A stretch of 64,000 bases of DNA from a virus. The notes beneath the pieces were generated by a model. The model was not told the DNA's origin and did no database searches. It saw only the letters and a program-made list of their open reading frames with translations. Below, piece by piece: positions 1,474 to 59,686 of this stretch (position 1 is its first letter; every line of letters starts with the position of its first letter). The stretch is taken from positions 1 through 64,000 of the IMG/VR virus record IMGVR_UViG_3300033056_000001; one strand, 5' to 3'. A program made the position numbers and the translations under genes.

Positions 1474-1501
1474 CAAAAGAAAAGACGCCGTTTCAGGCGC
1501 C
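1474..1501 (-). terminator. Intrinsic terminator after the replication-relaxation gene
   Basis: Minus strand reads GGCGCC-tgaaac-GGCGTC followed by TTTTCTTTTG. Overlaps the stop codon. Confidence 0.55.
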
Positions 1502-2139
1502 TAACCAATTCGTATAGATATTCCATCGTTCTTAGGTTTCGGCTTCGTGGCCGCCAATAACTCGGATACGTCTTTCGTTTGAATAATACGCACGTACTCG
1601 CTGCTCACGTTGTATTTATGGTCGGCGATAATCCAAACGGCGGGGAATCGTTTTACCTTAAACGGTAAGCACTCACGCCATAGCTCCGACCGTGCGAACG
1701 CCTCATACCTGGCGATTTTCTGCTGCATGACTCTCGCCGTGTACCGCGTATTCTGAACCTCCGCGAAGAAGGCGGAACCGCGCCAGAACATGCAAATGTC
1801 CGGCCGTACATCTACGTTAGGGAATTGCGACTCAACAGCGAAATGTTTCAGATCCTTCTCGCCGTGGCCGCGCAGTTGAAGGTAGAAATCGGTGATTTTA
1901 AGGAAGTGGTCGACTTTTTGTCCGTTGGTTTTAATGCGGGCAGGTTTCGGAAAGTATACGTAAGGCTGACGGTTAGTATCAGCCTCGACATATCCACGAT
2001 CGCGCAGCCGTTTTAATACTTCGTTTGCATGGCGGATAGGATTCTTTGTGTCGGCGAAAAAGAGGGCCGCCAGCTGGTCACGCGTCATTGCGCGGAATTG
2101 TTGAAGCGTAGAGATTATTTCGAGGTCACGTTTTCTCAT
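1501..2139 (-). CDS. Replication-relaxation family protein (wHTH N-terminus)
   Basis: 212 aa. N-terminal pattern RDLEIISTLQQFRAMTRDQLAALFF...LKRLRDRGYV is typical of the Replic_Relax family. Overlaps the upstream FtsK-like gene by 4 nt, a pairing known from Gram-positive plasmids and phages. Confidence 0.65.
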   Translation of the reverse strand: MRKRDLEIISTLQQFRAMTRDQLAALFFADTKNPIRHANEVLKRLRDRGYVEADTNRQPYVYFPKPARIKTNGQKVDHFLKITDFYLQLRGHGEKDLKHFAVESQFPNVDVRPDICMFWRGSAFFAEVQNTRYTARVMQQKIARYEAFARSELWRECLPFKVKRFPAVWIIADHKYNVSSEYVRIIQTKDVSELLAATKPKPKNDGISIRIG

Positions 2140-3347
2140 TCGGATTCATCCTCCCAGTTTTCATCGTCTTGCCCGAAGATATTATCGGTGAGTTTTTTGA
2201 GGTCCGGCTCGGCGGCCGGCGGAGTTGGCGTCACATTCGTCGCAGACTTAGGCGCTCGCCAGTAAACGTTCAAAAGTTCCTTCGCCACGTCTAAATCGAG
2301 GTATGGCGCTTTGAGCTCGGTATTCTCGCCGCGGAAGTCGATTATAAACTGACCGCTGCTTTTAAGCTTCTCGGCGCCTGGCGTTTCGAGTATCTCGGCG
2401 CTAGTTTGATTGCGTACTTTAAAGCCCATACTTACGTCAAGACAATCACGAAGGGTAGTATCGATAACTTTATGCGAAGGGCGCTGCATCGATAGAATGG
2501 CGTAAATTCCAAGCGCACGGCCCATCGCTACCAATTCGATTAGCTTGGCGTTGAGCTCTTTGTCATCGCGCAGCATTACGTATTCGTCGATACATAATAG
2601 AATATAAGGTTTGCGGTGTTCTTTCGGCAGTTTGTCGATGTGGTCAATTCCGAAGACTTCGAGTAGTTTGGTGCGGTCGATCATTTCGGCGTGCAGTTCG
2701 TCAAGAATACGATTGGCGCCGCGTTTGTCGCTTTCGAGTGCTTTCGTATGTTGGATATTACGGAACAGGTGAAACTCCGACCGTTTACAGTCGATGAGGT
2801 ACAACGAAAGCTCTGACGGCTTTTTCGTAAGGATGAGCGTTGTTAGTATAATGCGTAGAATTGAAGACTTACCGGAGCCAGGGACGCCGCCGATGACCGC
2901 ATAAGGATTCGTAACCATATCATACGTAAACCATTTGCCGCGCTTATCTTTGCCGCAGACAATCGGCATTTTCTTGCCGTGGATCTCACGCATGAACTCG
3001 CCGTAGTTATAGTCGATTGTGTTTTGGTTGCTGCGGTTAAATATCGTAAGCGTGAAAACCTTATCTTCGCCGGATAACTCGATGTTGCCACCGAACGACT
3101 GCCGGAATACATACTCGCGCTTACGGAGCTCATCTGGCGAGTATCCCAACGGAATTGAAAACACATACGTAAATGTTTCCGATTCAGTGTCCGGCCGCAT
3201 ATCAAGTAGGCGAGGGTACTGGCGAATTTGCTTGCCGCCGCTGTTTTTATGTGCGATGTAAATGCCGCCTGCATTGAACGCCCGTTTTAACGCTCTACGC
3301 GCCATTCTCAGCGTTTTCTTTTGCGCTAGATAGTTACGTATACTCAT
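2136..3347 (-). CDS. FtsK/SpoIIIE-family DNA translocase ATPase
   Basis: Walker A GGVPGSGKSS, Walker B ILLCIDEY, and the FtsK-type motif GRALGIYAILSMQRPS. Start moved to Met58 of ORF 2136..3518: GGAGG lies 7 nt upstream and an ATGA overlap joins it to the preceding membrane-protein gene. Confidence 0.85.
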   Translation of the reverse strand: MSIRNYLAQKKTLRMARRALKRAFNAGGIYIAHKNSGGKQIRQYPRLLDMRPDTESETFTYVFSIPLGYSPDELRKREYVFRQSFGGNIELSGEDKVFTLTIFNRSNQNTIDYNYGEFMREIHGKKMPIVCGKDKRGKWFTYDMVTNPYAVIGGVPGSGKSSILRIILTTLILTKKPSELSLYLIDCKRSEFHLFRNIQHTKALESDKRGANRILDELHAEMIDRTKLLEVFGIDHIDKLPKEHRKPYILLCIDEYVMLRDDKELNAKLIELVAMGRALGIYAILSMQRPSHKVIDTTLRDCLDVSMGFKVRNQTSAEILETPGAEKLKSSGQFIIDFRGENTELKAPYLDLDVAKELLNVYWRAPKSATNVTPTPPAAEPDLKKLTDNIFGQDDENWEDESE

Positions 3348-3661
3348 CCGACTAACCTCCATAAGAACGCCATTAGAAAGCCGAAGAATGTGACGGGCAT
3401 TAAGACGTTGGCGGCACCGGCGATTAGTTCCGCAGCTTGGGACGCGCCTCGGCTGGCGAAGTGATTTTCGAGAAGGTTGGATATTATCGCGGTCAAGCCG
3501 ACTGCTGATACGAGCCAATATGCGCCTGCAATTTCGGGAGACATGCTGAAAAATCCCGCCCAGGTGAATCCGAAAGAGTAGATCGGTGCGCTAATTTTTC
3601 GTGGCTCATGACGATAGTTTCCAGACATAAAATCGTTGAATTTAATCGTTTGTACTTTCAT
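3344..3661 (-). CDS. Membrane protein, first gene of the FtsK-like operon
   Basis: 105 aa with 2-3 hydrophobic helices (FGFTWAGFFSM, AYWLVSAVGLTAIISNLL, VLMPVTFFGFLMAFLWRLV). GGAGGT RBS. Translationally coupled to the downstream gene. Confidence 0.5.
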   Translation of the reverse strand: MKVQTIKFNDFMSGNYRHEPRKISAPIYSFGFTWAGFFSMSPEIAGAYWLVSAVGLTAIISNLLENHFASRGASQAAELIAGAANVLMPVTFFGFLMAFLWRLVG

Positions 3662-6620: not shown

Positions 6621-7937
6621 ATGAAAATATTAGTTATATTTATCTTGTACTTTTTGATTTTTGCATTTTGGAACATCTTTTTTGCCAAAAGAGATAAATT
6701 TAAAAATTTGTATTTAGTATTTTTCTTGTTCTTATTTAGTTTCTACCTATCTACTCCGTATTATCAAATAAATCTAGATGGTTCAAGGGAAAGCGCATCG
6801 TTACATACTGTTTTCGTAGCCTTGATTGTTTGCTTGTTTTTTGTCGCAAATAAAAGGGTTCTTAAACCAGGAAAAGAACTGATATTATTTATCCCTATAT
6901 TCTTCCAAGCTTTAATTACTGTGTTATACTTTAAGTTTAGTAATATTGCGGATGTCTTTGGTATTTTAAATGCTTATATAAGTATTTATCTGATTATCCT
7001 TATATATCGGAGTGTACCCAATATAGATATTAACAAATTTTTATACAGTATAAACTATCTAGCTTTGGTAAACGGAATTTTAGGTATGGCTCAATACATA
7101 ACGGGCAAAAGTTTATTGATCGGAAGTTTCAATAGTTCAATTCTTTATACAGAAGGTATGGTAGATATAAAACGTGTCATAGGATTAGCAGGAGCTAATA
7201 ATGCTGCCGGTACTTTTAGTGCTATACTTTTCGGCGTTGTCTTGTATAATTTACTAAAGAAGCGAGATATTCTAAGCTTAATAACCTTAATTATAACGAC
7301 TGTATTTGCTGTTTTAACTTTCACTAGGGTTGGCTATGTCGCTATTTTTGCAGAAGTTTTAATTTTTTGGTTTTTATACAAACCGAAAACAAAGAGAACT
7401 CAGTTTACAAAAATAATTTCGTTTTGTTTTGGCCTTCCTATTATAGTAATCGTCACTAGTAGTTTCGTTTCAGGCCTAATTAATAAATTATTTACGGAAC
7501 GTGGTGATACGTCCTCAGAAAGATTTAGGCAATTCCAAAGGGCATATGATTATGTTATTTCTAACAATTGGTTTTCAGGAATAGGAATAGGTCAATATAA
7601 ACCATATCTACTCAATAACTACCGAATAGCTGATTTACCAATACACTCTCAATACTTAAATGTTTTAGCAGAACAAGGAGTACTTATCTTAATTGTTTTT
7701 GTCCTCTTTAATTTCACGATAATTTACAAGATACTTAGAAACAAACACATAGATAAAGATTTAAAAGTACTAACAGTGGCGATTTTTTCGGCAAACTTTA
7801 TGTGTTCTAACTTTAACCCCAACCAATTTTATTACATGAATAACGTGCTTTACTACATTATTATGCTTGGTTTATATTTTTACGCGAAAAGATATAAAGT
7901 AGCGCCTTTGGATAAAGAGTTAAAAATAGCAGCATAG
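6621..7937 (+). CDS. O-antigen ligase/polymerase-like (Wzy_C family) polytopic membrane protein
   Basis: 438 aa with about 10-12 TM helices. Wzy_C-like motif region: FTRVGYVAIF ... PIHSQYLNVLAEQGVLILIV. Very AT-rich (roughly 25-30% GC by eye) compared with its neighbours. Opposite strand, with its own promoter and terminator. Confidence 0.75.
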   Translation: MKILVIFILYFLIFAFWNIFFAKRDKFKNLYLVFFLFLFSFYLSTPYYQINLDGSRESASLHTVFVALIVCLFFVANKRVLKPGKELILFIPIFFQALITVLYFKFSNIADVFGILNAYISIYLIILIYRSVPNIDINKFLYSINYLALVNGILGMAQYITGKSLLIGSFNSSILYTEGMVDIKRVIGLAGANNAAGTFSAILFGVVLYNLLKKRDILSLITLIITTVFAVLTFTRVGYVAIFAEVLIFWFLYKPKTKRTQFTKIISFCFGLPIIVIVTSSFVSGLINKLFTERGDTSSERFRQFQRAYDYVISNNWFSGIGIGQYKPYLLNNYRIADLPIHSQYLNVLAEQGVLILIVFVLFNFTIIYKILRNKHIDKDLKVLTVAIFSANFMCSNFNPNQFYYMNNVLYYIIMLGLYFYAKRYKVAPLDKELKIAA

Positions 7938-7967: not shown

Positions 7968-9506
7968 TCAGTTACCGGTTATCATTCGGTCATCAACAAA
8001 TATACTACCGACTTGAAGCCAACCGCGAACAACATATTTACTTCCAGCCGTTCCAACCTCTGAAAGAGTTCCTACATTTTCAACGTAAGTGTCGTACCCT
8101 GTTATAGATGATGGTTTTGCGTCGTTCATATGTCTTGTAGTCTTTTTAGCGAAAAAGTGGATATTCCCAACGTATCCTGTAGTGTTGACATCTTTAATGA
8201 TATTACCTTGATTAGAGTTTGACGTAGAATAAACTCCGAACTTGTTATTAACCGATGTTTTAGTCGTATCAATCGATTCTATAATAATATTTTTAAGGAG
8301 GATGTTTGTTGGTTGGGAAATACCATTTGAATCTAATAAAATACCATGCCCTTTAGTTGCTGTAGACGTATCATTTTTACCGTTTGTACCCTTAACTGTA
8401 TTGTCTGTAATAACTAACCTATCCGAACCAGCCAGAACCACAATACCGTTATTTGAAGCGTTTAATATTTTATTACTGCTTGCAACGGTTCCCTTTGTAT
8501 TATACAGAGTTAATGCACCCATACTTCCGTAAGAACTACTTTCGTCTACTATATTTCCGCTAACGATATTATCATCTGACTGCCAAATTTCAATTTGATG
8601 GAATCGATTATTCTTAGACGTGTTTCCGATAATCGTATTTTGATAAGCTACTTTACCGCTGCCCCCGAATGATGTAATCCCTTCTTGTCCGTTACCTTCA
8701 CAGTAATTTCCGATAGCTTTACAATATCGAGCGCCTTTGCCTAACGTCGAGTTGTAACCGAATAAGATACCCTGACCGCCGTTATTCTTAACTCTGGGAT
8801 TGTTTAATACGAATACGCGAGTTCCGCTTAATACGTTTATGTGTGCGCAGTCGTTTTGTTCTACAGCGTAACCTCCAAACTCGGCAGGGTTATCGAAGAT
8901 GCTGTTAGTAATCAATATATTATCGCTATCGTTGTCGACAATAATACTGCTTTTTGTGATGTTGTTGAACTCACAGTTAGATACGTAGGAATTTTTCGCA
9001 CCGTAATAGTAAACACCAACAACGCCAATGTTTGTGAATTTACAACGCTCAAACGAGACTCTTTCTTTACCGTCCGCTTGAACTACGAAATTGTATCCAT
9101 CAAAATTAATTCCGATAAATAAGTTTCTATTCATAGCGTCCATGAATTTAGTCGTACCGCTGCCTGCTATCTTCGATTGGTTTCCGACAAACGTAAGATC
9201 ATCATAAGAAGTTATTTTCGTTTTTATATTGTATGTTTTATTATTTTTTAGAGTAACAATACGCTTACCATCGGTATTTGCTTTGTTTACAGCACGTTGA
9301 AATCTAGCCGAATCATCAACCTCGGGAGCAACGATAGGGAATGATTCCAAATGTACGGAACTCTCAGCCAAAACATCAATTTTATCTGCATTCTCTTTCG
9401 CCTTTGTGTCGAGTTTCGTAAAGTTATTATTTAACTCCGTCCGTTTGAAATAATCCGTCTCCGCCCATATATCCATTCCTAGATTCGGTGTTTTATTCGA
9501 TGCCAT
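7968..9506 (-). CDS. Tailspike / second receptor-binding protein with right-handed parallel beta-helix (pectate-lyase-like depolymerase fold)
   Basis: 512 aa. The N-terminus MASNKTPNLGMDIWAETDYFKRTELNNNFTKLD is homologous to the N-terminus of the adjacent fibre. Repeated PbH1-like units are present (ILITNSIFDN, VKNNGGQGILFG, IGNYCEGNGQEGITSFG, IIGNTSKNNRFHQIEIW, VSGNIVDES, ILNASNNGIVVLAG, ITDNTVKG). GC is lower than in the tail genes. Confidence 0.75.
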   Translation of the reverse strand: MASNKTPNLGMDIWAETDYFKRTELNNNFTKLDTKAKENADKIDVLAESSVHLESFPIVAPEVDDSARFQRAVNKANTDGKRIVTLKNNKTYNIKTKITSYDDLTFVGNQSKIAGSGTTKFMDAMNRNLFIGINFDGYNFVVQADGKERVSFERCKFTNIGVVGVYYYGAKNSYVSNCEFNNITKSSIIVDNDSDNILITNSIFDNPAEFGGYAVEQNDCAHINVLSGTRVFVLNNPRVKNNGGQGILFGYNSTLGKGARYCKAIGNYCEGNGQEGITSFGGSGKVAYQNTIIGNTSKNNRFHQIEIWQSDDNIVSGNIVDESSSYGSMGALTLYNTKGTVASSNKILNASNNGIVVLAGSDRLVITDNTVKGTNGKNDTSTATKGHGILLDSNGISQPTNILLKNIIIESIDTTKTSVNNKFGVYSTSNSNQGNIIKDVNTTGYVGNIHFFAKKTTRHMNDAKPSSITGYDTYVENVGTLSEVGTAGSKYVVRGWLQVGSIFVDDRMITGN

Positions 9507-32784: not shown

Positions 32785-33372
32785 CTAGAGTTTCTTCCTC
32801 AAATCATGTATTTTAGCCCTAATTCTCGGCATTTCGACCTCAATTTCCGCCAGTCTTTCGCCGTCCCTTAACGCCTGCCCTAGCGATAATTCATTAAAAT
32901 AGTCGTCGTCCAGCAATTCGTGGTCCGGATTCTCTTCGAATTCCTCTCCGTCATTCATGTACGACCATTCAATCGACTGCTTTTCTTCGGATAGTTGGTA
33001 CAGCGTATACTCTAACCGGTCGATTTCCTCCTCAATACCAGCGCGAACTTCCGGAACCTCATCGTAAACTTTGGCGACATTATATTTCGGCTGCAATTCG
33101 TTAATGAAGAACGTCTCGTATACTTCCCGTTCGTAATCATCCGGAATATCGTATAGCTGGATTGTTTCGATTTGACCAACGAATAACTTACTGCGCCCGT
33201 CTCCTCGGCGATGATCCGCCAGTCTTTTACGGAACTGCATCGTTTTACCGACGTATAAAACAAGGCCGAAGCGATCTTTGAATACGTAGACCCCTCCGAC
33301 TGACTCTCGCAAGCTGTTAATCTCTTTTAGCGTAATTGTGGCGTATACTTCCGGCGCTGTTATTTTAATCAA
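32785..33372 (-). CDS. GIY-YIG nuclease (homing-endonuclease-like)
   Basis: GGVYVFKDRFGLVLYVGKTMQFRKRLADHRRG ... YETFFINELQPKYN carries the GIY..YVG..R..H..E..N motifs. 195 aa. Confidence 0.8.
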   Translation of the reverse strand: MIKITAPEVYATITLKEINSLRESVGGVYVFKDRFGLVLYVGKTMQFRKRLADHRRGDGRSKLFVGQIETIQLYDIPDDYEREVYETFFINELQPKYNVAKVYDEVPEVRAGIEEEIDRLEYTLYQLSEEKQSIEWSYMNDGEEFEENPDHELLDDDYFNELSLGQALRDGERLAEIEVEMPRIRAKIHDLRKKL

Positions 33373-33374
33373 CG

Positions 33375-34121
33375 TTAATTCCCCCTTAATTTGAATAGCT
33401 TGCGTTTTTCTAATCGATACTCAATTCCGTAACTATCTTCGTCATTTTTTATCGCTAACTTACGCGTACCTACAACGTCGCCAGGCGGAAATACTTCTTC
33501 TACGTAGGTGATTCGGCGGTCGTCCCAGCGCATTTGTTCGTCGCTCAAGCAAGGATATTCCGGTCCTTCATCTTCCGGTAGATAAACGAATCCTTCAGCG
33601 ATTTGACGAACGAACTCCTTCGATTTATAGTCACGTTCAGCGAATCGGTTAGCAATTGCGTTAAAAACTGCGTGCGAAGGCTCCTCGATACGTAGTCCGG
33701 CTGATATTGCGTTTAACCACTTATCGAGCTCATCCGTTATATATAAGTCGTGCGTTGGATCACCTTTCGAGAATGTCTGTCCGCTAGACATGTTCGCTGC
33801 GATTCGATTTAGGGCGCCGTTAATGTGATAACGAACAACCCTAGCGTCGATACCGAGTACCGCAGCGCATTCCTCTAACGTTAATTTTGCGAAATAGTGA
33901 AGCGCGATTGTCTGTCGCTGCCTCACCGTAAGTACCTCGCCGTTCATTGCAACGTCTAAGTCTGCGAGGATTACTGCTGTATCGATATCACCGCCGTAGA
34001 ACATCGTACTATTCAGGCGATAAACATCCTTTAGCAGCGCCGTAACGCCGTCCTTATCATACGAATACTGCTCGTCGTACTCTCGGCCTTTTTTATAAAT
34101 ATCGCGGGATACTGCACCCAT
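33375..34121 (-). CDS. Sigma-70 region-4-like HTH protein (ArpU/late-regulator-like, atypical architecture)
   Basis: LTVRQRQTIALHYFAKLTLEECAAVLGIDARVVRYHINGALNRI is a region-4 HTH placed at residues ~64-107. There is no clear region 2. The C-terminal 130 aa domain is unknown. Confidence 0.55.
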   Translation of the reverse strand: MGAVSRDIYKKGREYDEQYSYDKDGVTALLKDVYRLNSTMFYGGDIDTAVILADLDVAMNGEVLTVRQRQTIALHYFAKLTLEECAAVLGIDARVVRYHINGALNRIAANMSSGQTFSKGDPTHDLYITDELDKWLNAISAGLRIEEPSHAVFNAIANRFAERDYKSKEFVRQIAEGFVYLPEDEGPEYPCLSDEQMRWDDRRITYVEEVFPPGDVVGTRKLAIKNDEDSYGIEYRLEKRKLFKLRGN

Positions 34122-44757: not shown

Positions 44758-45299
44758 TTCGAAATCAACTCCTCGTTAATTAAGTACGCTAATCCCAAAG
44801 CCGCTGCGTCCGATTCGTCATCGCAAGCAAACTCGCCTTTGTAACCAGTAATGGTTCGAACCGAAGCTTCAATTTCTTCTTTCGTTGCAACTCCCGAACC
44901 AACTACGATATTCTTCATATTCGACTGTGGAATGCCGAGGTGTATTTTCCGCTTGCCTTTACGGTCGACTGTAACGAATTGCGAAAACTCTAGTCCGAGA
45001 AACTCAACGGCCCTCGCACACGCTGCCCAAGCGCTAAGAACCGGATAATTCTGTTTCGATGATTGACCGTGAAAGTCTTCGCGAGTTACGATATCGATGC
45101 CTTTTCCGATGTGATTCGATATAAAAGAAACGGCCCACGCATAGACTAATTCGTGCCGTATTGCGTGGCTTAGTTTTGTATTTGGTTTAACGTGACTCAC
45201 TGCGATGATTTTCGGTTTGTTGTCCCGAACCTCAATCAAACATAGGCCGGGAGAGCTGAGACTTGTATCAAATGAGAGTATCCTAGTAATCGTGGGCAT
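44754..45299 (-). CDS. RuvC-like Holliday junction resolvase
   Basis: Catalytic acidic residues in RuvC order: ILSFDTS (Asp), TREDFHG (Glu), DDESDAAALGLAYL (Asp/Asp). Confidence 0.65.
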   Translation of the reverse strand: MPTITRILSFDTSLSSPGLCLIEVRDNKPKIIAVSHVKPNTKLSHAIRHELVYAWAVSFISNHIGKGIDIVTREDFHGQSSKQNYPVLSAWAACARAVEFLGLEFSQFVTVDRKGKRKIHLGIPQSNMKNIVVGSGVATKEEIEASVRTITGYKGEFACDDESDAAALGLAYLINEELISK

Positions 45300-46203
45300 C
45301 TTTTACCCTCCTTAAAAATTCTCCGAACTGCGACTTAGTATTATTCTTATATCCATAAGTCATATGGAAACTTTTATGGCACCTTCTGCATAACGTAGCG
45401 CCATTGGAAACATCGAATCTTAATTCTTCTTTTGCGTCATAAGATTCTATATGATGAGCAACCATGATTTCCTCAGATATACCACACTTTACACAAGTAT
45501 TATCATCACGCTTTTTAACATGCCTCGCCCATTTACGAATAGGTCCGTCAGCACCTCTACCTAGCCTTCTTTGTCTTTCTGTTCTCTCACTGTTCCAATT
45601 ATGATGATTTTCTCCTTTTCGCTTTTCTGATGAACACTCTTTACATCTGTTCCCGTTAAGAAAACTTTTGAAGGTAATTTTTGATTTATTGCCGCAACTA
45701 CAAATGTAATTTAATTTAGCGTGATTGTTCGTGTACGTCTTATCCAAAAGAATGCATCCTGCGGAGGAGAAGTATGAAGATACAAAACTATAATCGTATG
45801 CTAATTTTTCAGCTACTTTAGATACGCCACACGCCTTACATCTTTTACCTGTTTTGAAATCAGATAATGTTATCTTTGAAGAATTACCGCAAGAGCACCG
45901 GTATCTCATAGCTGTGTGGTTGTTTTCGTAATTATCTTCAAGTAATTCACACCCTCCGTTTACAAACACTTCTTTCGCCTGATCTATTGTTAATTTCTTC
46001 AGCGCAGCGACCTTTTTGGCGCCACAATGTCTACATCTTATTCCTCGTTTGAATCTGTGCGTTTGTGTATAAGCTTCGTTCCCACAAACACATTTATATC
46101 GTAACTTTTGATTACAGCCCAAGTATTCATCTTCCAATAACTCGCAACCTTCCTCGGAAAACATGGTTTTTAGTTCATCTAGGGTATATTTACCCGCCAT
46201 CAA
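45283..46203 (-). CDS. HNH endonuclease with three tandem zinc-ribbon repeats
   Basis: Three ~48-aa repeats (GCELLEDxY....LxYxCxCGN...T...F..G.RC..CG) followed by HNH (CVKCG...HHI...N...LCRRCHKSFH). AT-rich. Confidence 0.75.
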   Translation of the reverse strand: MMAGKYTLDELKTMFSEEGCELLEDEYLGCNQKLRYKCVCGNEAYTQTHRFKRGIRCRHCGAKKVAALKKLTIDQAKEVFVNGGCELLEDNYENNHTAMRYRCSCGNSSKITLSDFKTGKRCKACGVSKVAEKLAYDYSFVSSYFSSAGCILLDKTYTNNHAKLNYICSCGNKSKITFKSFLNGNRCKECSSEKRKGENHHNWNSERTERQRRLGRGADGPIRKWARHVKKRDDNTCVKCGISEEIMVAHHIESYDAKEELRFDVSNGATLCRRCHKSFHMTYGYKNNTKSQFGEFLRRVKDAHDY

Positions 46204-47201
46204 ACCGCCTCCTCTTCGCGTGTATCAACGATAAACTCATACGCCTCTAAATACTTTTTCTTCTTCCATTCCGGTAAACTCGACTTCATTGCCAGCGAAG
46301 CCTGCTTTCTAATTTCCGTAACCTCTTCGTCGCTAAGATCCAGCGCACACGCCGTTTTGAAGTTGTTGAATCCGAATCGCTCGATGTCCAGTTTCGGTGC
46401 CTCGCCTGTTGCCACCGCTTCTGTAATCGCTGCAAAGTTGTCGAGTACTTCACGTTTCATCTCTTCGGTAATCTCTACGCCAAACACTCGCACGTCAGGC
46501 GTTTTCTCGTATTCTTCCTTCGTCATATTCCACGCCTTCTTACTAGCGTTCACATATACGACTAAGTAATAATCGACGTCATACATGAGCGAATAACACG
46601 TAATCTGCTTAACGTGGTCCTCTTTCGGTTCACGCATCGAATGAAGCGACGTTTGTGCTGCGGTAGTTTGTTTCGATTTAATTTCGAGCCCTACGCGAAT
46701 GATCTCGCCATCTTCATTTACGTAGTCAAGTACGCCATCGCACGTACCTAACAAGCTAAATCGCTGACCGTTATGTTCAATGAATCGCTGCGTCTTAACG
46801 AAGTCTTCGAAGAATGGCTCGCCTGCTTCCGTTCGTGACATTCCGAATCGAGGTCGTTCGCCAGTAAACTTTTCGTAATGACGTTCCGCTAATAAGACCT
46901 CGCGCTGTAGCCAGTCGCCCAAACTTGTGCCCTGCGCAGTCCAGCGACGTCGCCACGGTTTCACATCTTCGTCGTCCTTACGTGCTTTCTTCGCTTTTAC
47001 GTATAGTTCACGCGGACAACTGTTGGCGCTACTTGGCGAGAAATATACGCTTTTGAAGTCTAGTCGTTGGTATTTGCGTTTTACCTTTGCGTATATTTCG
47101 TGAAGCCAGGCGTCTAGCTTATCGTCATATGGCTCCCGGTAAGAATGGAACGTATCTAAGAATTCGGTAAAGTCCTGCGCAATTTGATTAACGTTTGTCA
47201 T
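46200..47201 (-). CDS. PD-(D/E)XK nuclease (RecB/Cas4-like exonuclease fold)
   Basis: The motifs GTCDGVLDY ... VGLEIKSKQ fit D...ExK. 333 aa. Confidence 0.55.
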   Translation of the reverse strand: MTNVNQIAQDFTEFLDTFHSYREPYDDKLDAWLHEIYAKVKRKYQRLDFKSVYFSPSSANSCPRELYVKAKKARKDDEDVKPWRRRWTAQGTSLGDWLQREVLLAERHYEKFTGERPRFGMSRTEAGEPFFEDFVKTQRFIEHNGQRFSLLGTCDGVLDYVNEDGEIIRVGLEIKSKQTTAAQTSLHSMREPKEDHVKQITCYSLMYDVDYYLVVYVNASKKAWNMTKEEYEKTPDVRVFGVEITEEMKREVLDNFAAITEAVATGEAPKLDIERFGFNNFKTACALDLSDEEVTEIRKQASLAMKSSLPEWKKKKYLEAYEFIVDTREEEAV

Positions 47202-51947: not shown

Positions 51948-52724
51948 TTACTCCGTATTCTCAAAGCAACCGTCGTAGTATTTTTTATAATCATCGACTG
52001 TCATTTTGTTGACCTCAGCCAAATACTCTATAGTAGCGTCAAATCTTTCTTGATCTAAGTTATAGATGAGTTTATTAGACTGAAACCACTCGAAGATGTT
52101 TTTATCTTGTTTGCTTGCGTTTAAATTAGCATTTAAAGGAAGGATGTTTTCAAGAACCGTGCCTCTATGTCCAGTAGCGATGGGGATAACGTGATCTATC
52201 TGTACATCTTCTCGTTTTCCTGAAAGTGCACAAGAGTTATCGAACTTAGCTAATACTTCCTTCCACTGGATATCTGTTAGATTGTTTGGTAATTTTTTAA
52301 CGCGGGCCCTCCGGTTACTATCTTTGGTTCTGATTTTCTCTGGATTCCTGTGACGCCATTCTTGGTGAACTTTTCTATAATGCTCCGGATTCGCTCTTCT
52401 AGCTTGGCGTTTTTGCTCAATGCGCCTTTCGTGGTTAGCTTTATACCAAGCGTCCAATCGATCTGCGTTATCCTCCCTCCACTTTTTTCGATACTCTTTC
52501 ACTTTATCTGTATATCTATAAACGTGAGAGCAGGAGGAACATTCTCCCCTGGTACTAGCGAAAGCTTTTTTGTCTGCCCAAAAATCGTTTATATACGTGA
52601 CTTTATCGCATTTTCTACATACTTTAGCTACTATTTCACCTGAACTATTTTCGTAATAAATAGTTCCTTTTCGATTTTTCTTCTCGATGCAACCTTGCGC
52701 AAGTAATTCTTCACGCAAACCCAT
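51948..52724 (-). CDS. HNH homing endonuclease (paralog of 58988..59686)
   Basis: N-terminal zinc-ribbon Cys pairs, a basic middle, then IDHVIPIATGHRGTVLENILPLNANLNASKQDKN. AT-rich. Confidence 0.8.
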   Translation of the reverse strand: MGLREELLAQGCIEKKNRKGTIYYENSSGEIVAKVCRKCDKVTYINDFWADKKAFASTRGECSSCSHVYRYTDKVKEYRKKWREDNADRLDAWYKANHERRIEQKRQARRANPEHYRKVHQEWRHRNPEKIRTKDSNRRARVKKLPNNLTDIQWKEVLAKFDNSCALSGKREDVQIDHVIPIATGHRGTVLENILPLNANLNASKQDKNIFEWFQSNKLIYNLDQERFDATIEYLAEVNKMTVDDYKKYYDGCFENTE

Positions 52725-53710: not shown

Positions 53711-54322
53711 TTAAAGCGCAACCAAGTAGTCGGTATGATTGCCGAATTGCTTTGAATCGAATTTGCCTGCCAGCTTTTCGAGTTTGCGTGTAACAGTGTA
53801 ATGATGCATTCCTAAACTTTTCGCGATTGCCAACGCTGAAGATTTAGGTTGTGTCCGGTAAGCTTCAACGATTGCCGTCGTTGTTGCATCCGAATCTTTC
53901 GTAAGGAAGTCGATCAGTTGCCTCTGGTCGGCTTCTTTTATTTCCGTAACTTCTTCCGCCAAGTTGAAGTCGTCTGCGATTTCGAAAGTTGCCGCTTCCG
54001 AATCATCTTCGTTTTGTTGCCACGTTGTTTCTCTTTCGCTTAGTTTCTTTTTCTTACGATAAACATCCGTTCTTGCTCTCGCTACACTGGAAAGGTAAAA
54101 TTTGATGAAGTCCGTTGAGCCGTCGTATTTGCCGATACAACGTAGTAACGTGTCTTCGTAGATTGCGTGAACTTCGTGCTTATCTGCTCGAATCGATTTG
54201 CCGATCTTTTCGAACGCTCTAGCACCTTTCGCAATTACCTCCGCGTAGATTTCGTTGAATACTTCGTCTGAACCAGAAGTTTGATACGCGATTACTAAGC
54301 TATTTAATTTTTTCATTTCCAT
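53711..54322 (-). CDS. Sigma-70-family (ECF/phage-type) sigma factor
   Basis: Region-2-like FNEIYAEV...DFIKFYLSSVARARTDVYRKKKK and region-4 HTH SSALAIAKSLGMHHYTVTRKLEKL. AGGAGGAA RBS. First gene after the aimP-like terminator. Confidence 0.7.
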   Translation of the reverse strand: MEMKKLNSLVIAYQTSGSDEVFNEIYAEVIAKGARAFEKIGKSIRADKHEVHAIYEDTLLRCIGKYDGSTDFIKFYLSSVARARTDVYRKKKKLSERETTWQQNEDDSEAATFEIADDFNLAEEVTEIKEADQRQLIDFLTKDSDATTTAIVEAYRTQPKSSALAIAKSLGMHHYTVTRKLEKLAGKFDSKQFGNHTDYLVAL

Positions 54323-54532
54323 TATTTATTTCCTCCTATCGTTGGTTACAACTGATATTACGAACGTTGTTTTTAGTTCGCACACATTTTCGAAAAACTT
54401 TTTAACTTTCTTTTTTTTTCGAAGTTAGTACGTTCTCGTCCGTACTTGTATTTATATAATACATGCTAATTGAGGATTTTTATGGAAAAGGGCGTGGATT
54501 TTACTTGGTCATTTTAAGTCCTTTTTACACAC

Positions 54533-54560
54533 AAAAAAAAGAGCGCCCAACTAGGCGCTT
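54533..54560 (-). terminator. Strong intrinsic terminator 22 nt after the AimP-like ORF
   Basis: Minus strand reads AAGCGCC-tagttg-GGCGCTC followed by TTTTTTTT. Confidence 0.75.
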
Positions 54561-54581: not shown

Positions 54582-54683
54582 TCAGCCTCCGCGTGGTACA
54601 TGAGCAGAAGCATCACCGCCGAACAGGATAAGGGCTCCTACAATGATCACCGCAGCAACTACAAATGGTAAATACTTTTTCAT
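54582..54683 (-). CDS. aimP: AimP-like secreted signalling pre-pro-peptide (33 aa), not in ORF track
   Basis: MKKYLPFVVAAVIIVGALILFGGDASAHVPRGG. Basic N-terminus, hydrophobic signal segment, C-terminal ...HVPRGG. The GAGGAGG RBS overlaps the stop of the AimR-like gene. Confidence 0.7.
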   Translation of the reverse strand: MKKYLPFVVAAVIIVGALILFGGDASAHVPRGG

Positions 54684-54697
54684 AAGAAATTTCCTCC

Positions 54698-55885
54698 TCA
54701 TTTAGCGAATTGCCCGTATACCGCCTCTGCCACAGATTTTAGAGTTTCGGATTTTCTTAGCTGTTCTAACGGTAGTTGCGCAAAGAATAAATCACCGACT
54801 TTCAAGAATTGGCTTAACGATTTAAACAGCATATCACTGTCGTTAGTGGCTAACCCTTTGTAATAGAAGTAGTACATCGCTTCTTCCGCTTCACTAACTT
54901 CCTTTTCGATAATCTCTAGGGCTTTACCTTTATCGCCCCATTTTGCCTCATAATGCGCAATTACTACCGGTACGCCTTCCGTAACCTTTACTCCATGGTG
55001 CGCGTCTAAAAACGGGAGGAACCATCGTTCTAACTCGTCAGCAAAACCTTCGTAATTAGCTTCGCGGTAAACATCGATCGCCTGCTTCGTATTTAGCACG
55101 CTCAGCTCGTAGCTTTCGAATGTAAACGACGTTCCTAATAGATAATACGAATTCGCTTTAAATATCGCACAAATATCCTGTGAAATATTTTTTGTTGCGT
55201 GCTCTCTTGCCTTTTCTACGTCTGCCAATACGTATAAAAAGCGTTTCCCTAATAGATCATTGAGCCTTACCTCAAAAGACATTCTGAAAAAGCAATCTTT
55301 CAAATTATACACGTCTTGTTCAATTTCATCACATATCCTAGACATAGTATGTAGATAAGCTGCTGATGTTGAAAGTATTCTATAACATACGTTAGCCTCT
55401 ACTAAGTTTAATAATAGTTTCATCTCACTGTCGTTTGTAGACACTTTTCTGACTTTATCTAACATTTCTTTATTTTTTATTTCTCCAGCTTCGTAGCTGG
55501 ATATCATTCCGTAAAGAGCACCCCAACGTTTTAAATTTTTATTTGTTGAAGTATCAACCTTTACTTTAATATAGTCATTTAAGACATCTAAATTTTTGTT
55601 TAGAGATAAGTACTCCATCGCAGCTTTTATATTTTCAGGTAACTCTAATTTGTATGCCCAATCTATAAGTTGAACATCGTCCTTAAATAAACTTCTTGAT
55701 ATTTTATAGAGTTTACAAAAACCAGGCTCCACTCCTTCATATAGGTATCTTCTCATAGTTCTAACATCTACTTCTGCAATTCTAGCCAAATCCTTAACCG
55801 GTATATTTTCTTCCAAACAATCCAACATTGTTTCAAGTGCGTTCCCGATCAATCGCAACACCCTTTCGAAAGTGCCTGCCAGCAT
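54698..55885 (-). CDS. aimR: AimR-like arbitrium receptor / transcription regulator (N-terminal HTH plus TPR-like helical repeats, RRNPP-type)
   Basis: 395 aa. HTH IPVKDLARIAEVDVRTMRRYL. All-helical body. The C-terminus YYFYYKGL...FLKVGDLFFAQLPLEQLRK resembles SPbeta AimR (from memory). The true start may be an internal TTG near 55852, preceded by GAAAGGG. Confidence 0.8.
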   Translation of the reverse strand: MLAGTFERVLRLIGNALETMLDCLEENIPVKDLARIAEVDVRTMRRYLYEGVEPGFCKLYKISRSLFKDDVQLIDWAYKLELPENIKAAMEYLSLNKNLDVLNDYIKVKVDTSTNKNLKRWGALYGMISSYEAGEIKNKEMLDKVRKVSTNDSEMKLLLNLVEANVCYRILSTSAAYLHTMSRICDEIEQDVYNLKDCFFRMSFEVRLNDLLGKRFLYVLADVEKAREHATKNISQDICAIFKANSYYLLGTSFTFESYELSVLNTKQAIDVYREANYEGFADELERWFLPFLDAHHGVKVTEGVPVVIAHYEAKWGDKGKALEIIEKEVSEAEEAMYYFYYKGLATNDSDMLFKSLSQFLKVGDLFFAQLPLEQLRKSETLKSVAEAVYGQFAK

Positions 55886-55925: not shown

Positions 55926-55953
55926 ATTATACACAAAATGTCTGACGAAGCAA
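55926..55953 (-). promoter_or_regulatory. Putative aimR promoter
   Basis: Minus strand reads TTGCTT, 16 nt spacer, TATAAT. Confidence 0.4.
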
Positions 55954-55986
55954 ACATTTTTTTGGATAAAAAAGGAGATAATTATT

Positions 55987-56193
55987 ATGATAAGTTATGA
56001 GCCATTTAAAGAAACACTCAAAGAGAAGAACATAAAAATAAGCCACCTTCGTACTGATAAAGGAGGATTTCTTACTACTGATGTTATTAGACGTATTAAT
56101 AAGGGAATGAACATTGATATCGTTAATATTGAGAAGATTTGTAGAGAGTTAGATGTACCAATAGAAAAAGTTATAAAATTCGTTAAAGAATAA
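55987..56193 (+). CDS. XRE-family HTH regulator (68 aa)
   Basis: Start at MISYEPFK (AAAGGAG RBS). HTH IKISHLRTDKGGFLTTDVIRRINKG. AT-rich. Confidence 0.65.
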   Translation: MISYEPFKETLKEKNIKISHLRTDKGGFLTTDVIRRINKGMNIDIVNIEKICRELDVPIEKVIKFVKE

Positions 56194-56251: not shown

Positions 56252-56476
56252 TTGATGTACGAGGTAGGAAAGTGCAGACTCAAGATACTTCTGAAAGAAC
56301 GTAGGATCACGCAAAACGAATTCGCTAGTATGATGGGTATGTCGAAGCAGCAAATCAACGATTACATAACGGGCCACACAGCCACAATGTCGTTAAAAAC
56401 TGCGAAAAACATCGCACATAAGCTCGACTGCTCCATTGATGATCTATACGAATGGACACGTTCAAAGACGAAGTAA
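56252..56476 (+). CDS. XRE/Cro-CI-family HTH regulator (74 aa)
   Basis: ITQNEFASMMGMSKQQINDYITG is a classic HTH_3. GGAGGTG RBS. Confidence 0.75.
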   Translation: MMYEVGKCRLKILLKERRITQNEFASMMGMSKQQINDYITGHTATMSLKTAKNIAHKLDCSIDDLYEWTRSKTK

Positions 56477-57644: not shown

Positions 57645-58988
57645 TCAAAAATCAAACTGTGAAGCCGCCGCCTGTCCGGTTTCCAGCTCGCGAACCAATC
57701 CGTAGTTAGGCATGTATAATACTTCGACCTGGGCGCCTTCGCTTGAACTATTACGAGACTTGCCGATCTCGATAAGCCCTTGCCCGTCTAACGTATCAAT
57801 ACCGAATGTGTTCGCTGCATCTTCGAGTACTGCTTTCGTTTTCTTAATTTCCGCACGCTTTGGCGCTCTTAACTCACGATTACCTTCTTCGTCAGTGTCG
57901 TCGCGCACCTCTTCCGCCTGCGTGATAACGTGAATCACCGTACCCGTAAGACCTGCCATTCTACGAATCTTCTTACTCGTATTCGCCACGTCACCGCCAG
58001 CCACTCGCGCTGTGTTAGCTTCGAAGTCCATTAAATAAATTGGATCGACGACTACAACGTCTGCTTTCGTTTGGTGTATATCGGATTCCAGCTGCGCCAC
58101 ATCGCGCTTGTGAAAGTCTACGTCATCGGCTGCACGTAAAATAATCTCACCTTTTAGCGATTCATTCAACGATAATAAGAACACTTCGAAGCCACTTTCG
58201 AACTCTTCCGACAATTTACCAGTGAGCAATGCGCGGTTCTCAAAACCCACGTCGTAGTTGACTCCTTCGATGTTTGCATCGATGATTCCCTGGCGTGCGG
58301 ATAGCGAAGAATACGCTCGCGCCATCCATTCAAAACGGCTCATCTCCATCGCCCATACGAGAACTCTAGCGCCTTGTGTTGCAGCTTCTAACGCTTCCTC
58401 CATTGTGAATACGGATTTACCGCGACCGGATCGCCCGTACCAACTATACATATTTCCGCTGAGATAACCGCCGACTTCGTTGTTGATTGTGGCGAATTTA
58501 CTTTTCCAAATCTTGAATGATTCGCCTGACTTGCGGCGTTTGTATTCGTCTAAGAACGCTTGGGTATCGGTCTTTAAGCTTGTGCCTATGACGTCTAGAA
58601 CGTCTGTTCTCATCTTAACCCGATTTGCATGAGAAATCAAGAGGTCAGCTAATTTATTTCCATCACTTTCGTTGGTGAACGCATCTACAAATTCCTGCTC
58701 TATAAAGTCTTTTATTTCTATTTTGGCTTTATGTGATTTTACTTGTTTTACTAAAAACGTAAAACTATCCTCTACTTGTGGAACATATTCAAATTCATTA
58801 CATTCTGAAACTACTGTCGCGTAAGAAGGTGTTTGGTTCTTATTATTGGCCGCGTATTTTTGAATGAAATCAAATGTTTCTTTTTCTCCTTTTGTGGAGA
58901 AGTGTGAAATATCGATAGCGTACTTGTTAAATACACTCACATCATTACCGTCTATAACTTTTGATAGCAACATATTCCCATAATTCAT
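57645..58988 (-). CDS. DnaB-like replicative helicase
   Basis: RecA-like core: Walker A GRSGRGKSVF, Walker B VVVVDPIYLM. DnaB-type N-terminal domain. 447 aa. Confidence 0.85.
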   Translation of the reverse strand: MNYGNMLLSKVIDGNDVSVFNKYAIDISHFSTKGEKETFDFIQKYAANNKNQTPSYATVVSECNEFEYVPQVEDSFTFLVKQVKSHKAKIEIKDFIEQEFVDAFTNESDGNKLADLLISHANRVKMRTDVLDVIGTSLKTDTQAFLDEYKRRKSGESFKIWKSKFATINNEVGGYLSGNMYSWYGRSGRGKSVFTMEEALEAATQGARVLVWAMEMSRFEWMARAYSSLSARQGIIDANIEGVNYDVGFENRALLTGKLSEEFESGFEVFLLSLNESLKGEIILRAADDVDFHKRDVAQLESDIHQTKADVVVVDPIYLMDFEANTARVAGGDVANTSKKIRRMAGLTGTVIHVITQAEEVRDDTDEEGNRELRAPKRAEIKKTKAVLEDAANTFGIDTLDGQGLIEIGKSRNSSSEGAQVEVLYMPNYGLVRELETGQAAASQFDF

Positions 58989-59686
58989 CAGCTTACCTCC
59001 TTGTTATCTGCACGTCTGTCTCGCCATATATCTACTGAATTTCTTTTAAACCCATAGGTATCGGTATCCCTTGACACTTGCTCTAAAGATCGTGGGTTTT
59101 CAAAGCACCAGTACACATACTCTTTGTACTCGGTCGGTGTCAGTCCGTTTAATTCAGCTAGGTAATTAACGGAATACTCAAATACCTCGATATCCAGGTC
59201 CGGCCTTTCTTTTATCCACTCAAAGGGATTCTTATTATTCTTTGCGCAATTTATTGTTCGACTAACGGGAAGTAGATTCTCCTTGATTGTTCCGCCATGT
59301 CCAGTAGATATTGCTACGAAATGATCTACACCTAGGTCTTCATCTATTGATTTAACCTCAGATATAGCACACTTAAAATTGAATTCCTTAACAAGGTTTA
59401 TATAATCGCGACTTTCCCACTCTTTCGGTAAAGCTCTCGCCATATCTTGGTAGGATTTACTTGGGTAAGGATTACCTTTCTTTTTGTTTCTTTGATAGTG
59501 ATTTTTAGCCCGTTGGTTTCTACATGACCTACAGATTGATGTTTTAATATTCTTACCTGGCGAATTACTAATTGTAAAATCTTCAACCTTTTTCACCAAA
59601 ATACATTGGCTACATTTTCTAGAAAGAACTTCCTCCCCGTCGATAATAGAAAGGAAGTCAATGATTTTTCTAGGCATTCGCATCAC
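58988..59686 (-). CDS. HNH homing endonuclease (paralog of 51948..52724)
   Basis: VDHFVAISTGHGGTIKENLLPVSRTINCAKNNKN and C-terminus YLAELNGLTPTEYKEYVYWCFEN (compare YLAEVNKMTVDDYKKYYDGCFEN). AT-rich. Confidence 0.8.
   Translation of the reverse strand: MMRMPRKIIDFLSIIDGEEVLSRKCSQCILVKKVEDFTISNSPGKNIKTSICRSCRNQRAKNHYQRNKKKGNPYPSKSYQDMARALPKEWESRDYINLVKEFNFKCAISEVKSIDEDLGVDHFVAISTGHGGTIKENLLPVSRTINCAKNNKNPFEWIKERPDLDIEVFEYSVNYLAELNGLTPTEYKEYVYWCFENPRSLEQVSRDTDTYGFKRNSVDIWRDRRADNKEVS

Follow-up and report, generated by a model that had tools for sequence, protein, structure and literature searches.

A survey by Stokar-Avihail and colleagues in 2019 reportedly defined 10 clades of AimR, the receptor of the arbitrium peptide communication systems of phages. 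Only the clade-2 systems, those of SPbeta and phi3T, have been characterised in depth, and how arbitrium converts peptide sensing into lysis or lysogeny is an active question. The SPbeta and phi3T operators (ATCACT-N25-AGTGAT and ATGTTC-N25-GAACAT, respectively) both lie downstream of aimP (PMC6458997). Two 6-bp inverted boxes with a 25-bp spacer form an architecture otherwise unseen in the PDB (PMC6458997). In SPbeta AimR the peptide is contacted by N202, N206, R228, T236, E300, N329 and D360; D360 salt-bridges the peptide Arg and R228 anchors the C-terminal carboxylate (PMC6458997). The downstream gene, aimX, acts by three unrelated mechanisms: as an RNA in SPbeta, as a MazE-like antitoxin in phi3T, or as an antirepressor. 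Published architectures comprise the SPbeta-like type, an 'extended' type and a generic receptor-peptide class, and the extended module of phi106, Wbeta, Waukesha92 and BMBtp14 contains aimR-aimP-aimX, a convergent aimC, and aimL (Kabel et al., 2025, bioRxiv 10.1101/2025.11.23.689978). Arbitrium on phage-plasmids and in many Bacillus elements has already been published.

A 64,000-nucleotide stretch of viral DNA (the window; positions 1 to 64,000 of IMG/VR record IMGVR_UViG_3300033056_000001) was analysed, for which a preliminary description had proposed an arbitrium-type module at 54582..55885. aimR and aimP were found there, followed on the same strand by a terminator, a candidate operator and the gene of a predicted sigma-70-family factor, which would take the role held elsewhere by aimX. 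This is the best explanation of the whole, at a probability of roughly 0.6. The receptor and the peptide are firmly established; it is the sigma-factor output that we infer. New here are this predicted output, the absent pro-region and the tail variants of the peptide, together with a known system in a new host and backbone. No link between arbitrium and a sigma factor was found in the accessible literature; an earlier description of the clade or of the layout is possible.

The locus resembles those of SPbeta and phi3T in the AimR fold (template-modelling (TM) score up to 0.77), in a layout where aimR, aimP and a terminator are succeeded by two 6-bp inverted boxes (imperfect in the window) set well apart by AT-rich sequence, and in a C-terminal xxxRG[GA] peptide (GMPRGA there, HVPRGG in the window) matched by a conserved Arg-binding Asp. 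As in those phages, the peptide-free receptor would be expected to activate a downstream lysis-promoting gene. Unlike them, the window has a receptor of just 20-26% identity to theirs, an operator spacer of 20 bp rather than 25 bp, replaced anchors (N202, N206, R228 and T236), an AimP without a pro-region, and a predicted 203-amino-acid (aa) sigma factor in place of an aimX RNA or MazE-like peptide. The carriers also differ: SPbeta is a 130-kb integrated siphovirus, whereas the window element is a contractile-tail phage of about 65 kb with plasmid-type genes and a Priestia host.

As in the extended module, AimR and AimP stand beside small regulators of the cI/cro type with a single helix-turn-helix (HTH), and some such elements are phage-plasmids. 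However, the two HTH genes of the window lie upstream of aimR and diverge from it, whereas those of the extended module lie downstream and are convergent; no small open reading frame (ORF) for an AimX antirepressor follows the window aimP, the sigma gene being there instead. The locus fits neither defined architecture, and the scheme of Kabel et al. would give it the generic 'RP' class; a sigma factor is not mentioned in the text of that paper (Kabel et al., 2025, bioRxiv 10.1101/2025.11.23.689978). PlcR-PapR, NprR-NprX and Rap-Phr likewise pair a receptor built of tetratricopeptide repeats (TPR) with an adjacent gene for a secreted pro-peptide, but their fold match is low (TM 0.3-0.4) and the profile matches of the window receptor are AimR-specific. 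The closest functional analogue of the proposed output would be the Xre/Xpf pair of PBSX, where Xpf is a phage-element sigma-like factor that turns on late genes (PMC8347963). PBSX shares with the window an XRE-type repressor beside a phage sigma-like factor and a contractile-tail structural module, and in arbitrium-less relatives of the window an XRE gene diverges from the sigma gene; unlike the window, PBSX lacks a peptide-sensing receptor.

The aimR gene was located at 54698..55885 on the minus strand. The coordinates, the length of 395 aa from ATG and the fold, an N-terminal HTH followed by helical TPR-like repeats, were all as first described. The span of the frame stood, and only its start probably needs correction: a TTG at 55852 is the likelier start, because AAGGGTG lies upstream of it, whereas the ATG at 55885 has no Shine-Dalgarno sequence or other ribosome-binding site (RBS). 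The resulting form would have 384 aa, and the same start is used by NCBI for a 99%-identical relative.

Matches of the 395-aa protein to Pfam PF22871 (AimR; E=1.6e-54, 185.6 bits, cut-off 26.7) and to the NCBIfam equivalog NF038310 (lysogeny_AimR; 189.4 bits, cut-off 70) lay far over the cut-offs in the AimR/RRNPP profile search that had been proposed as a check, and PHROG 1728 matched at E=3.5e-56. All solved AimR chains in the PDB were matched with HMMER at E-values of 4.5e-13 to 4e-8, and a block YYKGL...F.KS...F...LPL.QL at the C-terminus is common to them and the window receptor. A previously noted C-terminal likeness to SPbeta/phi3T AimR is real: HMMER pairs YYFYYKGLATNDSDMLFKSLSQFLKVGDLFFAQLPLEQLRK with ...YYYYKGLISQDKTDYYKSIRYFKKSDDKYFIQLPLLQLER. 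An AlphaFold2 model was built from 20 homologues (predicted local distance difference test (pLDDT) 90, predicted TM score 0.88) and compared with the AimR crystal structures, a further check that had been suggested. The 16 best PDB matches in Foldseek were all AimR, with TM 0.64-0.77 over the full length (~400 columns), and the next RRNPP families, PlcR and Rap, reached TM 0.3-0.4 only. Because curated profiles, solved AimR chains and the predicted fold agree, it is close to certain that the protein is a genuine AimR, and the receptor-peptide identification is secure.

No DNA-level relatives of the window were found in the phage or plasmid collections searched, and relatives were therefore found via proteins. 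The AimRs of isolated phages are no closer than 21-26% identity. A large protein collection yielded 19 closer AimR relatives at 47-99% identity, mostly from Priestia megaterium, one being from Cytobacillus solani; their contigs are in many cases 61-68 kb long. Several of them, including the 99%-identical P. megaterium protein, are named 'AimR family lysis-lysogeny pheromone receptor' by NCBI. The receptor itself is already recognised by NCBI annotation; only the peptide gene was untracked.

The peptide gene, aimP (54582..54683, minus strand), encodes a 33-aa pre-peptide, MKKYLPFVVAAVIIVGALILFGGDASAHVPRGG, whose layout resembles that of a signal peptide, with MKK, a 20-residue hydrophobic segment and DASA/HVPRGG (here and below a slash marks the start of the hexapeptide). 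Its GAGGAGG RBS (54693..54699, minus strand; 9 nt before the ATG) overlaps the aimR TGA (54700..54698), an overlap read in the sequence just as it had been reported, and GAGGAGG or AGGAGG upstream of the small ORF is kept in relatives. A 39-codon form of the ORF from an ATG at 54701 was ruled out, as GGAGG lies between the two ATGs and the relatives start downstream, some of them with TTG.

A small ORF behind a GAGGAGG-type RBS, followed by a terminator, was present in all 13 related loci reaching past aimR (11 distinct sequences). Over the codons for Ala(-1), Pro, Arg, Gly and Gly, the pairwise differences among the 11 sequences were 187 synonymous and 0 nonsynonymous; the Arg in A/xxPRGG is encoded by CGC, CGT, CGA, CGG or AGA across relatives. 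These solely synonymous differences argue that the small ORF is translated and strongly constrained, and the view of it as a conserved pre-peptide gene ending in HVPRGG was upheld, with the gene kept at 13 of 13 loci under purifying selection. Conservation sits in the invariant A/xxPRGG, and among the hexapeptide residues solely positions 1-2 vary, as they do in SPbeta-type peptides (PMC6458997). The 85%-identical AimR (P0002) is paired with the same HVPRGG encoded by different codons. The basic N-terminus, the hydrophobic segment and the HVPRGG end of the peptide were correctly described beforehand, and the 'short pro-region' was not: ASA abuts HVPRGG. No NCBIfam AimP model matched the window peptide, and the gene calls made for the 99% relative do not include aimP. 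HVPRGG and the other hexapeptides of the clade were not found in an arbitrium context in the searchable literature; an earlier listing is possible.

The pre-peptide ends in ...DASA/HVPRGG in the window and its 99% relative (L005) and in ...DVSA/HVPRGG in the 85% relative. The other untailed pre-peptide in the clade ends in ...IALA/DMPRGG. In eight of the 10 distinct peptides first compared, the hexapeptide lies inside the precursor, with a hydrophobic tail 5-9 residues long after it. Tailed forms are ...VNVA/DLPRGG-FIFTK, ...VDMA/SDPRGG-IIILDTLMQ, ...VDMA/SNPRGG-IIILDE(Q/K)LQ, ...ADMA/TDPRGG-FILFHK and -FIFFNK, ...NLA/DVPRGG-FILFK, ...ALA/DIPRGG-FILLTK and ...ALA/DLPRGG-FILLNK; the tailed DLPRGG of one relative reads DLPRGGFILLNK. 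An internal motif is thus a trait of relatives, the window AimP having its motif at the C-terminus, with the Arg present and a canonical end. Some Phr and NprX peptides, too, are known to mature from an internal part of their precursor. The stop codon lies exactly after GG in the HVPRGG lineage (window, L005, L101) and in L012, with GG-stop-FQE-stop, GG-stop-LIKTFQ and GG-stop-ICSER-stop, which points to GG as the functional C-terminus and suggests that the peptide can do without the tail. In the clade, Ala stands immediately before the hexapeptide and AimP has no pro-region. A signal-peptidase-type motif (ASA, VSA or ALA) precedes the hexapeptide in the window, L101, L011, L012 and L015, and signal peptidase alone could free the mature N-terminus in these five. 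HVPRGG is predicted, with fair confidence, to be the exact mature ligand.

The ligand pocket was compared by alignment to an SPbeta-numbered reference AimR at ~22% identity, at which single equivalences are tentative; the seven anchor residues tested define AimR clade 2 and not the whole AimR family. The sole conserved anchor was D360 of SPbeta, invariant in the clade as D365, which fits the invariant Arg of xxPRGG. Peptide docking is apparently not simply transferable from SPbeta, and the window AimR would represent a separate lineage with a re-built pocket.

A strong intrinsic terminator was mapped to 54533..54559 (minus strand; 7-bp stem with 5 G-C pairs at 54559..54542, 4-nt loop, C, T8). 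It starts 22 nt past the aimP stop, was found by terminator scan and RNA fold, and keeps its position in all relatives. Both the 8-U terminator at this distance and the order receptor, peptide, terminator, likened to aimR-aimP before, were confirmed. No aimX-like ORF was found between aimP and the sigma gene in the window sequence. The downstream intergenic regions of 340-420 bp were aligned for 13 loci, and showed a conserved order of inverted repeat, TTTTCCAT block, TGTATTAT, and structured leader with RBS.

The inverted repeat is the candidate AimR operator and reads GGACTT-N20-ACGCCC in the window (54490..54521, minus strand; 6-bp boxes). It is GGACAT-N20-ATGTCC in five related loci, GGGCAT-N20-ATGCCC in L015 and ACACGAA...TTCGTGT in L011; L013, like L015, has a perfect palindrome. 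The arms differ on both sides between lineages (GGACAT/ATGTCC vs GGGCAT/ATGCCC), and the 20-bp AT-rich spacer is constant. A search of the 64 kb with the degenerate operator pattern gave 54490..54521 as the sole exact match; matches with one mismatch numbered three, against 5.1 expected by chance, and all were inside genes. The SPbeta-type operator box was seen in the SPbetaL1 sequence. The long-spacer repeat was also considered as an RNA hairpin, which was ruled out, a 6-bp stem with a 20-nt loop being unstable and the geometry being that of known AimR operators.

The right arm of the repeat ends 28 nt upstream of the TATTAT hexamer (54461..54456) in TGTATTAT, a conserved extended -10-like element (54456..54463, minus strand) with no recognisable -35, which is the putative AimR-dependent promoter of the sigma gene. 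A consensus scan called no full sigma-A promoter at TGTATTAT. Relative to this putative promoter the right box would lie at about -46..-41 and the centre of the repeat at about -56, an activator position. The leader of the sigma gene (54323..54455, minus strand; ~130 nt) is conserved and contains a hairpin AGTACG-N8-CGTACT (54446..54427), an AT-rich repeat and a GGAGG RBS; its RNA fold has -26.7 kcal/mol (z = -2.25). The AT-rich inverted repeat, TTCGAAAAA...TTTTTCGAA (~54423..54389, minus strand), is conserved in seven relatives, where its spacer varies (15-24 nt). It forms a hairpin when folded as RNA, and may be an RNA element or a further operator.

The first gene past the terminator (53711..54322, minus strand) encodes the 203-aa protein, modelled as an ECF-like (extracytoplasmic function) sigma-70-family factor with sigma2 and sigma4 domains. 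NCBIfam TIGR02937 (sigma70-ECF) matched at E=1.8e-6 and 27.6 bits over profile positions 15-160 of 165, below its cut-off of 42.9, and several other NCBIfam sigma models also matched. Pfam gave no significant match to the protein, and a PDB profile search with its family gave generic winged-helix matches only. The family has more than 120 members, several of them named sigma-70 or sigma-24 factors, and Pfam Sigma70_r2 was found in two of 65, the most distant ones (5.5e-8). An AlphaFold2 model from 65 homologues (pLDDT 80) has two helical domains with a disordered linker at residues 107-120. All 50 of its 50 best PDB fold matches were sigma factors, the top ones at probability 1.0 (best E 4e-3, TM ~0.35), and they include sigma-32, SigH, SigB and the ECF factors sigma-L, sigma-E and sigma-H; the low TM is explained by the free relative orientation of the domains. 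The orthologue in the isolated temperate Bacillus subtilis phage 268TH002 is annotated 'RNA polymerase sigma factor'.

A second sigma-like gene, at 33375..34121 (minus strand; 248 aa), matched Pfam Sigma70_r4 above the cut-off (E=3.9e-6) and lies between nucleotide-metabolism genes and the terminase/structural module, a position that suggests a two-step sigma cascade. Sigma cascades occur in phages such as SPO1. AAGTA...CGAA dyads were considered as sigma promoters and ruled out, since they lie mostly inside coding sequence and reflect codon bias.

A sigma-family search was used to collect 80 related viral contigs, in which AimR was sought with a hidden Markov model (HMM) built from the window clade. 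In 58 of the 80, an AimR-like gene precedes the sigma gene in the same orientation and ends ~280-440 bp short of it, with larger gaps in the outliers L070 and L073. The AimRs at these 58 loci fall into many divergent lineages, at 60-640 bits against the clade profile. The clade HMM found no AimR at the remaining 22 loci. Pfam was run on ten of these and identified the ORF preceding the sigma gene as a primase (Toprim_2), so that arbitrium is absent there.

Elsewhere in the phage family, the AimPs of other lineages have the canonical form: they possess pro-regions and show the C-terminal motifs SDRVGG, ANKVGG, SDKVGG (twice in one precursor), ADIRVGA, AIKVGG, DPVPGG and ETRPGG. By these pro-regions and C-terminal motifs the xxPRGG clade appears to be the odd one in the family. 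The other-lineage AimPs noted at the IMG/VR loci L022, L049, L026 and L036 include precursors with two mature-type motifs, for example ...SDKVGGFVTPYSDKVGG and AYDPGDGPIGGAS...AYDPGDGPIGGAS, and others with glycine-rich tails (…MYIPGGGGGIGGG); repeated mature units in AimP have been described (PMC9765709). Long-spacer inverted repeats in the other lineages begin 12-32 nt past the terminator T-run, for example GTAAAC-N22-GTTTAC and AAGTACAC...GTGTACTT, and 24 of 50 distinct regions contained a perfect 6-bp long-spacer repeat, whereas shuffled sequence would give 11.2.

In 268TH002 the gene order is helicase, primase, two divergent HTH genes, AimR, AimP and sigma; the C-terminus of its AimP is ...AINAIGG, and past the terminator lies GAACAA-N18-TTGTTC. 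The same helicase-to-sigma order was found on the circular 65,049-bp plasmid p1 of B. paralicheniformis. The sigma gene is also present in phages 268TH007, phi18-2 and Mgbh1 and in a 62.9-kb Paenibacillus plasmid, where gene presence only was recorded. The genome announcement of 268TH002 and 268TH007 discusses neither gene.

Two HTH genes stand upstream of aimR in the window. The nearer, at 55987..56193 (plus strand), encodes a 68-aa HTH_26 regulator (Pfam HTH_26, E=1.6e-5) and diverges from aimR; it is syntenic in relatives and travels with the arbitrium cassette. The second, at 56252..56476 (plus strand), encodes a 74-aa XRE-type regulator (Pfam HTH_3/HTH_26, E ~1e-12), a candidate prophage repressor that also matches PHROG transcriptional repressor families and an NCBIfam RstR-type repressor (2.4e-7). 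The aimR/68-aa HTH divergent region contains a 10-bp inverted repeat, AAAATGTCTG/CAAACATTTT, with a 6-nt spacer (55935..55960), which is a candidate operator for the small HTH/XRE regulators. At two arbitrium-less loci viewed in detail, an XRE gene of 77-86 aa, homologous to that for the 74-aa protein, diverges from the sigma gene with ~100 bp between them. This divergence places the sigma gene at a repressor-controlled switch and resembles the classic repressor/lytic-regulator switch. The gap between repressor and sigma genes would then be where the arbitrium cassette was inserted, along with the 68-aa HTH gene. The GC content of the cassette, 0.37 against ~0.46 in the backbone, fits modular exchange.

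The following mechanism is proposed. AimP would be exported by Sec, and signal peptidase I would cut after ASA to give HVPRGG directly, with no extracellular trimming of a pro-peptide, unlike SPbeta-type AimPs. HVPRGG would build up with the number of infections and then be re-imported. Peptide-free AimR dimers on the inverted repeat would activate the -35-less promoter of the sigma gene, and the sigma factor would steer host RNA polymerase to phage middle/late genes, possibly via the second sigma-like gene, and so commit the cell to lysis. AimR bound to HVPRGG would no longer span the operator; no sigma factor would be made, and the XRE-type repressor(s) would set up plasmid lysogeny. Direct control of the sigma promoter by AimR is mildly favoured by position, geometry and comparative genomics, because the operator position, the 6-bp arms and the long AT-rich spacer match the SPbeta/phi3T operators. 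The general form of the proposal is more tentative and falls a little short of even odds: in a widespread family of Bacillaceae phages and phage-plasmids of ~55-70 kb AimR would directly gate a sigma factor, the cassette having been inserted into an ancestral XRE/sigma switch, with an xxPRGG signal matured by signal peptidase alone and an optional tail lost at least twice.

Several observations weigh against this account. The sigma assignment rests on a sub-threshold profile match and low-TM fold matches, and no two-block sigma promoter motif recurred above shuffles in 32 upstream regions of the window. In the pocket, the anchor N202 is replaced by an invariant K214, N206 by Y218 and R228 by I, L or F, and T236 is variable. 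Relatives other than the five named above carry D or N at -3, which makes direct signal-peptidase cleavage less clear, and in most relatives PRGG is followed by the 5-9-residue tail, which leaves the length of the mature peptide uncertain. The window repeat itself is degenerate, matching at 4 of 6 arm positions (8 of 10 when the AAAA/TTTT flanks are counted). Both window arms deviate at arm position 5, the counterpart of a position mattering most in the SPbeta box, and the closest relatives are also degenerate, L101 having a left arm GGACTC. L015 combines a nearly identical HTH with a perfectly palindromic site, and for this reason the window appears to carry a weakened copy of the operator, a point that counts against the mechanism for this element more than any other.

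The degenerate repeat can be accommodated in two other ways. The module could be functional with the sigma gene not its direct target, the XRE repressor(s) controlling the sigma promoter while AimR acts at some other site, for example a host gene or the divergent region between aimR and the HTH gene. The imperfect window repeat, the separate 10-bp inverted repeat in that divergent region, the additional operators bound by SPbeta AimR (PMC6458997) and the control of the sigma gene by the divergent XRE gene alone in arbitrium-less relatives would all be consistent with this. It is nevertheless unlikely: the long-spacer repeat lies past the aimP terminator, exactly at the site of all characterised AimR operators, and its geometry is atypical for small XRE dimers; a second match to the operator pattern is absent from the window, and the cassette is always immediately upstream of the sigma gene. 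Alternatively, the module of this element could be decaying or serve as an eavesdropper only, the degenerate operator having uncoupled receptor and peptide from the switch. The perfect GGGCAT/ATGCCC beside the near-identical HTH of L015, set against the 4 of 6 arm match of the window, and a GC content as for a recently acquired cassette speak in its favour. Intact aimR and aimP genes, a peptide kept via synonymous changes at 85% AimR identity, an identical operator in the 99% relative, which is from another isolate, and conservation of the -10 element, leader and sigma gene make it improbable.

A third alternative concerns the peptide: instead of being processed to a diffusible signal, the 33-aa product could stay in the membrane as a small anchored protein. 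One long stretch of hydrophobic residues makes up most of it, an N-terminal pro-region is lacking, and the D or N at -3 in several relatives is poor for signal peptidase. Conservation lies in A/xxPRGG, however, and not in the hydrophobic segment; the adjacency to AimR and the conserved Arg with its conserved Arg-binding Asp fit a ligand, and other AimR lineages of the same phage family have canonical AimPs with pro-regions, which together leave this alternative very improbable. The account in which AimR gates the sigma gene and HVPRGG is the signal is preferred to all three.

The carrier is a contractile-tail phage of P. megaterium of ~65 kb that probably persists as a plasmid. Virion and lysis genes identified with PHROG and Pfam encode a tail sheath, baseplate wedge, tape measure, tail spike, portal, large terminase, major head protein and endolysin; those for replication and nucleotide metabolism encode a DnaB-like helicase, primase, DnaC-like loader, PolA, ribonucleotide reductase, ThyX and a DNA methyltransferase. 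A plasmid-type cluster at one end of the window comprises genes for a ParA-like partition protein, a replication initiator and an FtsK/SpoIIIE-like protein (323..1012, plus strand; 1501..2139 and 2136..3518, minus strand). The earlier characterisation of the backbone as unlike SPbeta, with its own replisome and partition genes, agrees with these findings. No integrase was found among the ~40 window ORFs scanned. The relatives comprise contigs that stand alone at ~61-68 kb, CP180721.1 being one, as well as circular plasmids. A phage-plasmid lifestyle is likely for the window element.

Other features of the backbone were recorded. A low-GC island (0.33-0.40) at 6621..7937 (plus strand) and 7968..9506 (minus strand) has a Wzy_C O-antigen-ligase-like membrane protein on the opposite strand beside a right-handed beta-helix protein, and may be a lysogenic-conversion or receptor-modifying moron beside the tail spike. 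A 333-aa protein encoded at 46200..47201 (minus strand), between an HNH endonuclease gene and the PolA region, matched PHROG 1706 'CRISPR/Cas system associated' (E=4.6e-64). Homing-type endonuclease genes (endonuclease VII/HNH-like and GIY-YIG) are present in the replication module at 51948..52724, 58988..59686, 45283..46203 and 32785..33372, all on the minus strand, and the PolA of the related locus L013 is shortened and directly flanked by an HNH_3 gene.

Annotation is affected as well: NCBIfam overlooks the aimP genes of the xxPRGG clade, and gene callers sometimes do so too. With natural variants that have and lack a tail, and with no pro-region, the clade bears on the maturation of arbitrium peptides. 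The isolated temperate B. subtilis phage 268TH002 carries the aimR-aimP-sigma layout, and phages 268TH007 and phi18-2, which have the sigma gene, probably share it. If the proposed mechanism is true, the sigma factor is a fourth and the most direct arbitrium output, beside the aimX RNA of SPbeta, the MazE-like AimX of phi3T and the AimX antirepressor. A conserved aimR-aimP-sigma order would mean a one-step path from the signal to a global transcription switch, and would make the arbitrium cassette a portable input module for different master regulators.

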